Positions 5,472 to 23,246 of a stretch of 64,000 nt of DNA are shown piece after piece; positions within the stretch are counted from its first letter, which is position 1, and the number at the start of each line of letters is the position of its first letter. Made by a program: the position numbers and the translations under genes. Below the pieces are notes generated by a model that was given only the letters and a program-made list of their open reading frames with translations, did no database searches and was not told the origin of the DNA. Location of the stretch: positions 480,001 to 544,000 of the forward strand of contig OY729427.2 of NCBI GenBank assembly GCA_963422375.2, given 5' to 3'. This DNA is from Bryobacterales bacterium. Its GTDB lineage: Bacteria > Acidobacteriota > Terriglobia > Bryobacterales > UBA6623.

Positions 5472-6380
5472 TTTCTTTACGTCGCGCTGACGGCTCCCCA
5501 CACCCCTACCAGCCCCAGCCCGGAGTTTGAAGGCACCAGCGACTTGGGCTTGTACGGGGACTTTGTCGAGGAGACCGACGCCACGGTGGGGCGCGTCCTA
5601 CGCGCTCTGGAATTGCACGGCCTGAGCGACAGCACGCTCGTGATCGCCACATCCGATCACGGCGCCGCACCGTATGCAGGCAATCTCCGCAAGGCGACGC
5701 CGAACCTCATTCGAGAGCTTGAGAAGCTCGGCCACTACTCGAGCGGCATCTACCGCGGTTACAAGTTCACAGTGTTCGAGGGCGGCCTGCGAGTGCCCTT
5801 GCTTGCGCGATGGCCGGGTGCGGTCCCGCCCGGGTCTCGCTGCAACCGATTAGTGGGGCTGAATGACCTTGCAGCCACGGTCGCCGACGTCGCGGGCATC
5901 GACTTGGATCAAGGAGACCTCCCGGACTCGGTGAGCCTCGCGCCTCTCCTGAGGAATCCGACAGATCAAAGCGTGCGAACGCACCTAGTGATGCAGTCGC
6001 CGCTGGCATTCGCAATCCGCCACGACCGTTGGAAGCTCGCCCTCACCCCCGGGAGCGGTTCCCGGGGCATGTGGGGAACGTCGCCGGCACCCGAGGAAGC
6101 ATGGGGCGATGCCTTGGAATCGTTCGAATCGATTCCGTCCCCTGCGGACTTGCGGAAGGCACCGTTCGTGCAGCTGTTTGACCTCGTCGACGACGCGCGC
6201 GAAACCAAGAACCTAGCCGCCGACCGACCGGCAAGGGTTGACGCGCTGAATTCCCTCTTCGACTCGATCATCGAGCGCGGACGCAGCACGCCCGGGCCCG
6301 CACTTGCCAACGACGTCGCATCCGTCGATCTCCACAGGAATGCCCGCCCGTGGATCCGGCAACTCGGCACGGCGCGCTGA
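5472..6380 (+). pseudogene. Arylsulfatase, C-terminal part only (5' half lost at IS1595 junction)
   Basis: FLYVALTAPHTP, TSDHG, RGYKFTVFEGGLRVP, QLFDL..D..E..NL; the frame begins inside the IS end and there is no CxPxR motif. Confidence 0.85.
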
Positions 6381-13361: not shown

Positions 13362-14878
13362 GGGAATTATATATCTGAGTGCCGACAACGCCATATCCGA
13401 CGAGAACTGCTGTGAGCCGGGAGGTGGGTGTCGAGCTGGGGTCATTCGAGTGCGGCCGCGGCAGGCACGGAGGGGTGGGATCGTATCTGAATCGAGCCTG
13501 CCAGCGGATTGGACGAGGAAGGGACTAGAGAGGCCGCCTCGCATGCCCCGGTGGAACCCGGTTGGCGGTGGCAGGGCACCCCTTGCAAGCCGCTTGCAGG
13601 CCCTGCGAGGGGCGAAGACAGCGGATCCCCGGCGCTCGACGGCCTGCATGGACGGTCCGGGCCGGACCGGGGTCGCACCGGGGCATGCCGGATCCGGTGC
13701 GCCCCTCGCACCGAGCGTGCAGCGCACCGAGCGTGAAGAGCGCGCCCGCAGCGGGCTGCCGCGCTCGGCGCGGCGGGCGCCGCTCGGGCCGCGACCGCGG
13801 CCTTGCCGGTCAGCTGCCGGTAGGTCAGCGTCCGGCCGACCAAGCCCCGCGCCATGCGCCGCATCCGTTCCGCCGTGTCGCAGTCGCGGTCGTTGCGCCG
13901 TCCCGCGAACTCCGTGAGGTAGCGGCCGAGATGACGGACGCTCATCCGGTGATAGGTTCCGTACAGGCCGCGCTTGAACAGGGACCGGAACGATTCGATG
14001 CCGTTCGTATGCGCTGCCCCGCGCACGTACTCGCCGCCGGAGCGCCTGACGGCTTCGTGCGGGAACTCCTCCATGCCGGCGCAGGCCGCCGCCTCGTCGG
14101 AGTAGAGCTGCGCCCCCGGCGCGACGCGGGCGCGCACGAAGCCCTGCAGGTCGCCCTTGGCGGTGCCCGCCAGCGGCCGCGCGGCCACTGCGTTCGTGGC
14201 GCGGTCCCGCGCCCCCGCCACGGGGGTCTTGCCGACCGGCCCGCGCCCGGCACGGGCCTTCTTGCTCTCGTGCTGGTTGCGTTCCTTGCCGCCGACGTAG
14301 GTCTCGTCCACTTCCACCGGGCCGGCGAACAGGCCCCGATCCCGCTCCCGGCACGCGCGGATGCGGTGCGCCAGGTGCCAGGCCGACTTCCGGGTGATAC
14401 CCGGGTCGCGGTGCAGCTTCATGCTCGAGACGCCCTTGATGCCGGTGGTCAGCAGGAACAGGGCGACGGCCCGGGTGCGGTAGCCGAGCTCGGTGTCGGC
14501 CGTCACGCTGCCGGTGCGCACCGAAAAGCGCTTGCCGCAGCCGCGGCAACGGTACGGCATCGAAGGGTGGGCCGCGTCGGACTGCACGCTGGAGCCGCGG
14601 CAGCGGGGGCACGCGGGACCGTCCGGCCAGCGCATGGAGGCGAACCACTTTTCCGCGGATTCGTCATCGGGGAACATGGCGATCACTTCGATCAATGTGA
14701 TGCCTTTACGGAACCACTTTCCGGGACCTTATTTCTTCATTTACGGTATCCCCTACTGGAACTATTCTACCAAGAAATACCACAGAATGTCAACGGAAAG
14801 TCGGAAGAAATATGAAATCTTATTATGGCTTGATAATTTGCCGAATCGATTCCCTCGGCACTCAGATATATAATTCCC
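13362..14878 (-). mobile_element. IS1595-family insertion sequence, copy 2 (transposase with TAA at codon 4)
   Basis: Same 24-bp IRs; ATG AAG AAA TAA at 14740-14729 versus TCA in copy 1; the stop TGA of copy 1 is CGA here. Confidence 0.93.
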
Positions 14879-16503: not shown

Positions 16504-17465
16504 CTACGGACTCTCGAGACTCCCTTCCCATTCCTTTGGAACGAGGAGTTTCTTGCCGTTGTAATGAATGAGATGACCGGGTTTCTCGCAGATCCACACA
16601 TGAGAATCCCATGCCACATCATTGACATGTCTCCGAAACTCAGCAAAGTCAGGAAACGCACTGACATAGACGCATTTTGTGGAGGATCTCGACAAGAGTA
16701 GGTCCAATTCTACAATTCTCTTCTCTGACATCGGCCCGTGTGATGTAACTGCTTCTACAAGGAATATCCAATTTCTACCTCCGTCGAATAACTGATATCC
16801 GGTAACTTATCATGCTCAGTGATTCTTATGCTTAGAGTGTCGAGTCGATCATTGTCTACCACTAAGCTCTTACTTGCTGTGTCTCCGAGGTAAAGCAATT
16901 CAGACCCCGGCGCAAATTGCGGACCGAATTCTTCAACGACAGCCCTCTGAAGATCATTATGCCTGCCCGGAGAGAGCCGGATCTCCTGATCATCTGGAAG
17001 CCTTACCGGAACAAGATTATGATTCCTTTCCCTGCTATAGACTTCTTGCAAGATCGGCCGAGTGTGACGGAATTGTCGAATCGATTCATCCCATCTATCC
17101 GTTTTATACTTTCTTATCAAGTCCAGTACATCCTTGGTAATTGCGTAATGCGTATGCGGGCTATTGGTCGCCAGATCAGGGCCAAATGGATTGCGATCAC
17201 AAATCCGGCCCTGAACAAACTGGTGAAGCACTTGACGTCGGACTGTTTCACGCGTATTGGGAGCATAATTCTTGTCATAGTGTTGCCTCAAGTAGTCCAT
17301 GATCCCCTTTGTAACTGTGCAGGATCGACGCTCGGAATCGGACCAAGATGACCGCGGTGTTAGCCCGCACAATGCAAGGAGTGTCATACCAGAGATTTCG
17401 TTCTGTTGAGACTTCGGCATGCCCAAGGATCTGAGGATTCCTCGTGCCTCTTCAACTGTCGCCAT
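16504..17465 (-). pseudogene. BsuBI/PstI-family type II restriction endonuclease, frameshifted
   Basis: YAPNTRETVRRQVLHQF, LSPGRHN.LQ.AVVEEFGP.F, HDKLPDI, then a frame break at ~16792, then LFDGGRNWIFLVEAVTSHGPM. Confidence 0.88.
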
Positions 17466-19113
17466 GATACGATACCTCCATGTAGTTGGAATACACCAGT
17501 CGTTGTGCTAAGGCATCTAATTCCATCAATGGGTCGGATACATTTTGAATCCGCCTGCCCAAAGCAACAATATCTTCAACTTCAGGTAGGGGCATAAGCC
17601 TCAACTCTGTGGCACTGACTTGCGTGTTTCCGTTGATGGTCCGGAAGTAGATGTCAAGAATCTGACTGTTGTATAGGGCGGCCAAACCCCAAGCTTCGTC
17701 TTCGGTTAGGCTGTCACAGGGTCGATAAATATAGTTTAAATGGTTCTCTAGACCGACCTCCGGAATCTGAAAGTTCGAAGCGATATACGGGGCTGCTGTA
17801 AGGCGTCTTGATTCTTCCTTGGCGCTAAAGCGACGCAACAGCACGTAGTTTCTATTCGGCACAAGGAGCTTTCGCCCTGCCTTGCGGCTGATATATTCAG
17901 CTTTGTACCGGTTAATCGGCCATCTTGCCTGCATGGGGCGCACGTGGTTCATCCATAAGAGCGGCACATGACTCTGAGGCGTCTTGCCGATTCGTGCTAT
18001 AAGATTTGTCGCACGAAAGGGAATTACTGGTCCAGTAGAGATTCTTAGACCTAGGCTTTCTAGAGTGTTGGGCCAGGAATCGACTAGCGCAAGTACTTGA
18101 TCATCTCTATCGGTCAGCGGGAGCCTCAGTACTTTGTTGATTGACCTTGAGTCCAAGGCGGAATCAATTGCGATCTCGCGACTGGTCAAGCGGAAGATAT
18201 CGCTAGAGCCACGACTAGTCGAAACGACCATCTGTCCATTCAACTGATGTGAATTCCATTGGTCACTGCGAGTTCCAGTGAAAATAATATTTTCCTGCAG
18301 GACTGCATCTCTTCCAAACGTATCACGTCTAGACTCAAATACATGCACGGCAGCTGGTTGGACCTTATCAAATAGATACTCGCGGAATTTTTTGAAATAC
18401 GGTCCAGAACAAAAACTGCGAGGAGTAATGAATATCAGATCGCCATTGTCACGCAATAAGGCGACTCCAACGGCCATGAATAGCGAGTAGATGTTTGGCT
18501 GTCCATGCACTACCGAAGAAACGGCTACGGCACGAGGATCCGATTTATTGACCTTGAAATAAGGCGGATTCGAAATGACAGCGTCATGGGATGGCTCCCA
18601 AATCGGTCGTGCATCAATGAAACGATTGTTTTCCAAGATATTCGAGTGAAGCAATATGAAGTCGCCTACCCTCAACTTGAATGTTACTTGTACATCGTGC
18701 AGATGCCTGCTCCACGATGAAAGGTAGTCTAACACTGCGTGAAGTGGCTCCCTCAGGTTGGGGTCGACTTCATACACATCCAAGCTAACTTGAAGCGGAC
18801 TTGATTGATGTCCGAGGAGTGCTTCGACTGCGGCACAGCAGAGTATGCCGCTGCCGGCTGCCGGATCTAGAATTCTTGGGTTCTCTCGGCCTGTCTTGAT
18901 TTGTAATGCCATGAATCGTGCGACGGTGACGGGAGTCAGGTACAGACCGAATTTCCGGCGGCGTGCTTCAGACTTTCCTGCAACGTACCACTCGCCTACT
19001 CTATCGGCATAGACTGTAGGTGATTCCATCGTCTCGGGCACCGGTATTGTGGAACTAGAGCAACGAACAGCGCCGAATTCTTCTTCGACATGGAATGCGT
19101 TCCTAGCGCCCAT
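17452..19113 (-). CDS. N6-adenine DNA methyltransferase (gamma class, BsuBI/PstI/Eco57I-like)
   Basis: ILDPAAGSG motif I, ISNPPY motif IV, FITPRSFCSG.YF, ENHLNY, INGNTQVSATELR; GAGGAGG RBS; lower GC than flanks. Confidence 0.92.
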   Translation of the reverse strand: MGARNAFHVEEEFGAVRCSSSTIPVPETMESPTVYADRVGEWYVAGKSEARRRKFGLYLTPVTVARFMALQIKTGRENPRILDPAAGSGILCCAAVEALLGHQSSPLQVSLDVYEVDPNLREPLHAVLDYLSSWSRHLHDVQVTFKLRVGDFILLHSNILENNRFIDARPIWEPSHDAVISNPPYFKVNKSDPRAVAVSSVVHGQPNIYSLFMAVGVALLRDNGDLIFITPRSFCSGPYFKKFREYLFDKVQPAAVHVFESRRDTFGRDAVLQENIIFTGTRSDQWNSHQLNGQMVVSTSRGSSDIFRLTSREIAIDSALDSRSINKVLRLPLTDRDDQVLALVDSWPNTLESLGLRISTGPVIPFRATNLIARIGKTPQSHVPLLWMNHVRPMQARWPINRYKAEYISRKAGRKLLVPNRNYVLLRRFSAKEESRRLTAAPYIASNFQIPEVGLENHLNYIYRPCDSLTEDEAWGLAALYNSQILDIYFRTINGNTQVSATELRLMPLPEVEDIVALGRRIQNVSDPLMELDALAQRLVYSNYMEVSYHGDS

Positions 19114-22420: not shown

Positions 22421-22482
22421 GGGCCGCTCGCCCGGCCCGCCGGGCAAGCTAGAAGTCGGCCGGGGCGGCCCGTTCCCCCTGT

Positions 22483-22998
22483 CTAGAGCTTGCTGCAAGC
22501 GCTCGCCGCGCCGGCCGGATCGATGGCGTCCGAGCCGCTCTCCACGTGCGCGATCTTGCCGTCCTTGCCGACTACGAAGGTCGTGCGACTGGCCATCTTG
22601 CGCTCCGCCATCAGCACGTCGTACTTCTTCGCCACGGCGCCGTCCGCGTCGCTGAGAATCGCGAAATCGAGGCTCAGGGACTCGGCGAACTTCGTGTTCG
22701 TGTCGAGGGTGTCAGTGCTCACGCCGTAGACGACCGAGTCGCTGTCGAGGAACTGCTGGATACCAGCCTGGTATCCCTTCATCTCGCGCGTTCAACCGCC
22801 GGTGAAGGCCTTGGGGAAGAACGCCAGCACGACGTTCTTGTTGCCGCGGAACGACGACAGCTGCGCGTCCTTGCCGTCCGACCCCGGCAAGGTGAAGTCA
22901 GGTGCCGCGTCGCCTACCGCAAGGGCCGCGACCGCCCGCCGGGACACCGCCGCGACCGCTCCGGTCAGGAGGACCGCTCGTCTCGAGAGAGTGCTCAT
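22483..22998 (-). CDS. Peroxiredoxin (AhpC/TSA, BCP-like), probable selenoprotein with Sec at TGA 22794-22792
   Basis: Two ORF-track pieces are in one frame: [10 protein letters not shown]...[19 protein letters not shown]...YGVS.D...[13 protein letters not shown]; the TGA occupies the PxxxTxxC peroxidatic Cys. Confidence 0.88.
22758..22776 (-). promoter_or_regulatory. Putative bacterial SECIS hairpin
   Basis: GGATACC-AGGCT-GGTATCC perfect stem starting 16 nt 3' of the in-frame UGA, with G in the apical loop. Confidence 0.7.
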
Positions 22999-23246
22999 GG
23001 AATCGCCTTTCTTGATGCGGGCCGCGTCGATTCGCGTCCCGCCCGAGATTCTAGCAGGTCGGGGGTCACGCCATGCCCGCCGAACGGGTCGCTGCGTTGA
23101 CCAAGCCCCTGTCCGCCCTATACAATAGTAGCTAGTGTCCGTCCGGGCGGCGTGGCGCGACGGCCCGCCCCCCTAGTTCCCCGATCGCTCGCGCGGGACC
23201 GCGCCCGGTTCGCCGAATCGCGGGCGGGGCCCTCGGCTCCATCTCG

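Follow-up and report, generated by a model that had tools for sequence, protein, structure and literature searches.

A peroxiredoxin gene in the window analyzed here, a 64,000-nt stretch of Bryobacterales DNA, is interrupted midway by a TGA codon that is very likely read as selenocysteine (Sec), yielding one predicted exported peroxide-removing enzyme. We hold Sec insertion at this TGA to be close to certain. The features of the gene to which the text refers are as follows, with positions counted in the window.

22483..22998, minus strand: peroxiredoxin gene (PF00578), 171 codons plus TAG, with one TGA read through
23006..23013, minus strand: likely ribosome-binding site AAGAAAGG, purine-rich, 7 nt ahead of the ATG, read from the sequence
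22927..22998, minus strand: predicted signal peptide, residues 1-24, with S-R-R-A-V-L, 12 uncharged residues, a second RR and an A-V-A cleavage motif
22792..22815, minus strand: active-site motif P62-K-A-F-T66-G-G-U69, which aligns with the PxxxTxxC of solved peroxiredoxins
22792..22794, minus strand: in-frame TGA at codon 69, predicted selenocysteine 69 at the peroxidatic position, TGA in 74 of 84 distinct loci
22758..22776, minus strand: SECIS-type hairpin GGATACC-AGGCT-GGTATCC, its loop 22 nt past the UGA, judged by published bacterial SECIS criteria
22585..22587, minus strand: Arg138, the conserved catalytic arginine of peroxiredoxins, in 56 of 56 close loci and all 88 rows of alignment A1
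22495..22497, minus strand: Cys168, predicted resolving cysteine in the last helix (162-170 in the model), in 56 of 56 close loci

The ORF track splits this gene in two, and an earlier note on this DNA had read both parts as one frame. Positions 22998 to 22483 of the minus strand indeed form a single frame of 171 codons from ATG to TAG, and the only interruption is the internal TGA (22794-22792), which falls, as the note had proposed, on the column of the peroxidatic Cys in solved peroxiredoxins. The single Cys that it placed near the C-terminus is Cys168. An in-frame ATG four codons past the TGA lets gene callers report a 99-aa product, and this downstream piece (P0013) is the sole entry for the gene on this contig in the protein collection; the mis-split is therefore real. 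A contig (depth about 303) of public run X4, which may be the origin of this very DNA, is identical across the whole stretch, and a 166-nt contig of run X7 crosses the TGA with zero differences. The mis-annotation is systematic: 53 of 61 sampled genomes of the family, and 30 of another 250 from the phylum, have a match with an internal TGA, which gene callers treat as a stop.

The genome (5.996 Mb in 3 contigs, 96.4% complete) contains the complete set of selA, selB, selC and selD for which the earlier note had proposed a search, each above its curated cut-off: selA at 515.8 bits (cut-off 267.9), selB at 345.6 bits (242.25), selD at 299.7 bits (125) and tRNA-Sec (selC) at 73.9 bits (47). The acceptor stem of the tRNA-Sec is 8 bp long and its discriminator base is G, both marks of a serine-charged tRNA-Sec. 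As a side observation, selD (C1:1374433-1375347(+), L011 in this genome, G000) ends a 779-codon open frame and is probably part of a fusion; its catalytic loop has Cys, not Sec.

A perfect stem had been claimed 16 nt downstream of the TGA and was found there, at 22776-22758, with GGATACC / AGGCT / GGTATCC beginning at the 16th base after the TGA. ViennaRNA also pairs the A and U of the loop, which gives 8 bp and a GGC loop, with a folding energy of -11.5 kcal/mol over the 42 nt following the UGA. The bacterial SECIS model as drawn in Fig. 2 of PMC13188914 combines a 3-9 nt loop, a 4-16 bp stem, a distance of 16-37 nt from the UGA and an energy of at most -7.5 kcal/mol, with a G in the first two loop positions in the form N1-G-[G/U]-N-N2, N1 and N2 being paired. 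With a 7-8 bp stem, an A-G-G-C-U loop and a distance of 22 nt, the hairpin agrees with all four criteria of that figure. On 55 nt its fold has a z of -2.58, and 2 of 200 shuffles fold equally well. By itself, the hairpin is modest evidence for Sec, since a perfect stem of at least 7 Watson-Crick pairs with a G-containing loop 16-37 nt downstream follows 763 of the 49,488 TGA codons of the genome (1.5%), and a loose generic SECIS model accepts 283 of 1,500 random TGAs (19%); conservation decides the case. The frequency of AG[GT]YY loops (184 of 49,488 TGAs) is not usable as a probability, as the pattern was set after seeing the data.

Among 84 distinct homologous loci, the catalytic column holds TGA in 74, Cys in 9 and Arg in 1, with conserved flanks, which is the Cys/TGA alternation that the earlier note had suggested checking. 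DNA of close loci was fetched for 30 loci of the 61-genome sample, 20 further regions and 11 of the 20 loci of the nearest relatives, and duplicate removal left 56 close loci (46 TGA, 9 Cys, 1 CGC). Nine distant loci from outside the family (L062-L070) and the duplicates were set aside before counting, and the tree was built without database homolog P0005. The closest relatives with a name are Bryobacterales genomes, which show 74-80% identity. Of the 61 family genomes, 52 match over nearly the full length with one TGA and 1 matches in part, again with a TGA; 7 have only a stop-free match and 1 only a distant paralog. In the phylum sample, the 30 genomes that match at 1e-33 all do so with one TGA, which was verified at position 69 in 29 of 29 fetched loci.

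The TGA form follows the Sec machinery. A selA match is present in 54 of the 61 family genomes, including all 53 with a TGA-bearing match, and the 7 genomes without one (G005, G016, G025, G026, G034, G035 and G042) are exactly the 7 with a stop-free copy only, in which TGC or TGT was verified in the DNA. These seven genomes, one of them 74% complete, belong to two genera, and a single clade contains all their Cys copies, so that they represent one or two events and not seven. Sec and Cys forms are interleaved in a tree of 152 rows, a quick tree that is unrooted in practice, with 65 of its 149 inner branches open. In G012 (C163:26900-28700, L071), a TGA copy and a TGC copy lie in tandem, both with RR signals and with the stem in the TGA copy only. 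These are natural side-by-side versions of one small enzyme, a pair suited to testing what selenium contributes to peroxide removal within an oxidising compartment, the setting in which withstanding over-oxidation should matter most. Two irregular cases were also seen: a second copy in G027 (L076) has CGC (Arg) at the catalytic codon and is either a dead gene or an assembly error, and in G015 (C14:102160-103486), where the selA match is in two pieces, a TGA copy is retained.

Conservation of the hairpin in relatives, which the earlier note had also put forward as a check, follows the same division, the stem being conserved where a copy has TGA and lost where it has Cys. Among the close loci, 45 of the 46 with TGA preserve the inner four stem pairs, as compared to 0 of the 10 without TGA, and the A..U loop closure is present in 46 of 46 as compared to 0 of 10; in the 29 distant TGA loci of the phylum sample, the inner stem lies in the same register in 21 and is absent at the exact register in 8. 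Over the 74 TGA loci, the third bases of the Ala78 and Gly79 codons are held at T despite a strong G+C bias, Ala78 being GCT in 55 of 56 (99 of 1,050 for other Ala codons) and Gly79 being GGT in 41 of 42 (145 of 986 for other Gly codons). The +21/+29 pair is C-G in 44 of these loci, U-A in 24, U-G in 2 and unpaired in 4, and the switch between C-G and U-A alters Gly to Asp. TAT is used at 27 of 73 other Tyr codons in genes with U at +21 versus 18 of 92 otherwise, so that base composition may account for some of the covariation, which is partly confounded by it and by kinship. A count of structure-pair covariation was not significant, the score being reached by 35 of 500 shuffles, in an underpowered comparison that used 6 of the 74 TGA loci.

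The translated protein is a peroxiredoxin, with an AhpC-TSA domain at residues 28-151 (E 5.9e-36) and a mean pLDDT of 96.7 for the AlphaFold monomer of its mature part. Pro62, Thr66 and Arg138 are kept in 45, 45 and 46 of the 46 close TGA loci, and the combination of a PF00578 domain, PxxxTxxU and a conserved Arg places the protein among the Sec-containing peroxiredoxins (Sec-Prx). It has no Cys in helix 2 or 3, and Cys168 lies three residues from the chain end. A late Cys equivalent to Cys168 is present in 80 of the 84 loci, none of which has a helix-2 Cys, and in every one of the 100 database homologs of full length. The other 4 loci all have a Cys 4 residues after the U and look like one clade. 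This exchange of a late Cys for one next to the active site fits a resolving role of Cys168, and the earlier suggestion that the C-terminal Cys may resolve gains support, albeit indirect. Taken together, the near-invariance of the Cys, the swap and the precedent of a resolving Cys in helix 5 favour a Sec69-Cys168 selenenyl-sulfide. The four loci in question (L115, L127, L128 and L130) make up a sister group of TGA peroxiredoxins that are exported and have U-T-x-E-C; they lack the C-terminal Cys and have no hairpin at this register.

Of the alternatives, the one that survives best accepts Sec insertion and export and denies Cys168 the resolving role. The protein would then be a 1-Cys, AhpE-like enzyme, with a small thiol or a partner to recycle it, or would pass oxidising equivalents on to a client protein, and Cys168 would merely link subunits or shield the selenol. 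We consider this unlikely. In its favor, Mycobacterium tuberculosis AhpE, described in PMC8945050 as a 1-Cys enzyme recycled by mycothiol and mycoredoxin, is among the nearest solved structures (E 4e-18), and Cys168 sits within a confidently predicted helix, distant in sequence from the active site, such that a rearrangement would be needed. This has to be weighed against a Cys that is nearly invariant and is exchanged for one in helix 2. A helix-5 resolving Cys is moreover a recognised, intrasubunit arrangement, reported for some members of the AhpE group in PMC4749874.

Export of the peroxiredoxin is predicted with high probability from its N-terminus, a signal-type extension being present in every homolog with a visible N-terminus. 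The earlier note had called the protein Tat-exported on the strength of SRRAVL plus a hydrophobic stretch. SRRAVL is present as described, at residues 5-10, which agrees with the S/T-R-R-x-hydrophobic motif of a Tat substrate, and TatC is encoded in the genome. The uncharged stretch past the first RR is just 12 residues, cut off by the second RR at residues 20-21; under the TatFind rule, 13 or more uncharged residues should follow the RR. The cleavage site was placed by the A-x-A pattern. The first 40 residues had no match among the Tat signal HMMs of Pfam or NCBIfam, in a search without a positive control. The route in this genome is predicted to be Tat with fair probability, and a Tat route is plausible for this clade only; what remains of the earlier claim is likely export and a Tat motif, in a family whose distant TGA relatives mostly have ordinary signals.

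The comparative data bear on an improbable alternative, in which the protein is a real selenoprotein whose RR peptide is not a working Tat signal here, so that it would leave through the Sec translocon or stay cytoplasmic. The short uncharged stretch with its second RR and the silent Tat HMMs are what such a reading would predict, and the RR is absent from 10 of 46 close TGA loci, with ordinary signal peptides, judged by eye, in the 29 distant TGA loci. Nonetheless, an S/T/D-R-R-x-hydrophobic motif is kept in 36 of the 46 close TGA loci, across several genera, as compared to 1 of 10 non-TGA loci. At least 13 uncharged residues follow the RR in 33 of these 36, and the signal-type extension runs throughout the family. 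A separate idea, that Tat export is a special need of selenoproteins, was rejected on the same absences and on the occurrence of RR in Cys-form database homologs: 19 of 100 full-length homologs carry RR, and 93 of the 100 show Cys in the scored motif, where the codon is not visible.

Decoding of the UGA as Cys or Trp, for example by a suppressor-type tRNA or under an alternative genetic code, is very improbable. Database homolog P0005 is translated with Trp at the site, and UGA-reading tRNA-Cys variants occur in some bacteria. Against this, the canonical tRNA-Sec is the only UCA tRNA at default stringency, ordinary genes also end in TGA here (e.g., an EF-Tu-like frame at C1:1518933), TGA forms follow the presence of selA, and Trp is unable to act as a peroxidatic residue. 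It is scarcely credible that the locus is a pseudogene, reflects a sequencing error or encodes two genuine small proteins (68 and 99 aa). The in-frame ATG after the TGA permits the 99-aa call, but the TGA recurs at this catalytic column in 74 loci, with identity as low as 42%, both halves are conserved with synonymous sites frozen in the hairpin, and the catalytic residue lies in neither half.

We return to a single gene with UGA read as Sec, whose exported product is predicted to reduce peroxide in the periplasm with Cys168 as the resolving residue, a reading that we judge likely as a whole and that can be laid out in five steps. First, and on strong grounds, SelB with Sec-tRNA(Sec) would bind the A-G-G-C-U hairpin 22 nt downstream and insert Sec69. 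The N-terminal peptide would next carry the product over the inner membrane, in this clade probably through Tat, with cleavage following residue 24 or so. Homology then suggests that Pro62, Thr66 and Arg138 hold the Sec69 selenolate, which attacks H2O2 or an organic hydroperoxide and is converted to a selenenic acid. The short C-terminal helix may then fray to allow a Cys168-Sec69 selenenyl-sulfide, either intrachain or across a dimer. Finally, by analogy with PprX of Caulobacter, an exported TlpA-like thioredoxin fed by a DsbD-type membrane protein could reduce the Se-S bond.

Candidate recycling partners in the genome are a 646-aa DsbD-type protein and a pair of small WCxxC thioredoxins (C1 near 954,900 and C2 near 3,634,400), each stand-alone and hydrophobic at its N-terminus. 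The locus itself has no linked partner gene, its neighbors being a thiolase gene and ffh. An operon partner was rejected; the gene points away from ffh and towards the thiolase gene. This neighborhood is kept mostly within the genus and in one other genus, and the only sigma-70-like site found faces ffh. A 10-bp G+C-rich inverted repeat without a T-run lies between the convergent thiolase and peroxiredoxin genes (window 22426-22449) and is a possible shared terminator; it was seen in the sequence and is absent from the output of the scan that gave the sigma-70-like site. Elsewhere in the window, ARAGORN reports a 93-nt tRNA-Ala(CGC) at 6051-6143 that is possibly spurious. Upstream lie what we take, from their ORF sequences, to be an IS1595-like transposase (13442-14695) and a lower-G+C BsuBI/PstI-type methyltransferase/endonuclease pair (16504-19113).

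The genome contains further selenoprotein candidates. Three FG-GAP/ASPIC-UnbV/thioredoxin/TPR genes (C1:580604(+), C1:944698(+) and C2:3299315(-); loci L098-L100 and L131-L150) have an in-frame TGA in D-L-U-S-F-F-W. Across 41 family genomes, 25 of 36 matches have one TGA, the downstream hairpin is conserved, and a paralog has Cys at the TGA position. An FG-GAP propeller selenoprotein is absent from the 119-family table of PMC13188914, as far as the accessible text of that paper goes. A 356-aa fusion of an exported Prx-like U-x-x-C domain and a DsbD N-terminal domain (C2:884406(+), L093) is a possible electron carrier for the peroxiredoxin. The remaining candidates, which came from a coding-potential screen, are a Trx7/PDZ protein that adjoins selA and lies above the NF041199 cut-off (C2:1937374(+), L095), an ArsC-like U-x-x-C protein (C3:336656(+), L096), an AhpD-like C-x-x-U protein (C2:1527603(+), L094), a UGSC protein above the NF041046 cut-off (C2:529782(-), L097) and a rhodanese with an N-terminal lipoprotein-like peptide (C1:1814791(+), L101). 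Loops similar to that of the peroxiredoxin gene occur in other Sec genes of this genome, namely AGGTT (Trx7/PDZ and ArsC-like) and AGTTT (UGSC). No Sec-dependent formate dehydrogenase was among the screen rows listed. A broader reading, which we offer tentatively and at somewhat less than even confidence, is that the gene is the type of a subfamily, so far unrecognised and spread across the Acidobacteriota, whose members are periplasmic selenoperoxidases and form a Sec-Cys bond through a chain-end Cys, and that in Bryobacterales it might serve as the terminal peroxide sink of a selenium-based redox network in the envelope. In that same tentative proposal, the network would also hold the U-x-x-C Prx-like/DsbD-alpha fusion, the Trx7/PDZ protein and the FG-GAP propeller selenoproteins.

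In comparison with known systems, the gene is an added member of the Sec-Prx family catalogued since 2005-2006. Prx (PF00578, TxxU) is listed in Table 1 of PMC13188914 as an experimentally verified bacterial selenoprotein family, and Sec-Prx genes number 43 in the Sargasso Sea survey (PMC1088965) and 12 in PMC1794560. The gene shares with this family PF00578, PxxxTxxU, a SECIS within the ORF and Cys homologs. It differs in its predicted export signal, as family members are described in the accessible text as intracellular H2O2 reducers with no mention of a signal peptide; 'periplasm' has 0 occurrences in the available text of PMC13188914 and 'signal peptide' 0 in that of PMC1088965. No description of an exported Sec-Prx was found in the open-access literature. 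The recoding and the chemistry are textbook. Any surprise is confined to two predicted features, an export signal and a resolving Cys at the chain end, and only for these was no description found in that literature.

A published relative, compared by eye, is peroxiredoxin 2 of Anaeromyxobacter dehalogenans (PMC1794560, supplementary file 4, 2006), which shares with this protein K-A-F-T-x-G-U-T-R-E at the active site and a C-terminal A-I-D-P-A-G-A-x-x-x-C. It comes from another phylum, has other residues in the hairpin region and is printed in that file without its N-terminus, so that no export signal is visible; from its sequence, it very probably belongs to the same subfamily. In its predicted location and recycling, the protein would resemble the periplasmic PrxQ-type peroxiredoxin PprX of Caulobacter crescentus, which according to PMC3322552 is reduced by TlpA and ScsB. 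Both have a signal peptide and a distant second Cys, and this genome has a DsbD-type protein and TlpA-like thioredoxins; PprX has Cys instead of Sec, and the two are likened by description and not by sequence.

PrxU (NF040737) and Prx-SUH (NF045827) are likewise selenoperoxiredoxins with an active-site Sec, but the protein scores far under both cut-offs (46.1 versus 270 bits and 25.2 versus 298 bits). The best solved-structure matches are AhpE and BCP/PrxQ (PDB 1xxu and 5id2; 2ywn, 5epf and 3drn; E 4e-22 to 3e-14), from which this protein differs in lacking a helix-2 or helix-3 Cys and in having a predicted signal peptide and Sec. The AhpE motif PxAF(T/S)xxC with its Ala-Phe dyad, as given in PMC5302317, is present here and in 61 of the 84 loci, whereas the Val/Ile that precedes the peroxidatic residue in the AhpE-assigned set of that paper is replaced by Gly68. 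The BCP/PrxQ motifs P(K/A/R)(D/A)xTxGC and G(V/I)SxD are also present here, and in 61 and 68 of the 84 loci, whereas the NCBIfam BCP equivalog is missed at 81.7 versus 140 bits and the only Cys lies in the last helix and not in helix 2 or 3. By these motifs and scores, the subfamily lies between AhpE and PrxQ, fitting both published motifs and passing no NCBIfam cut-off.
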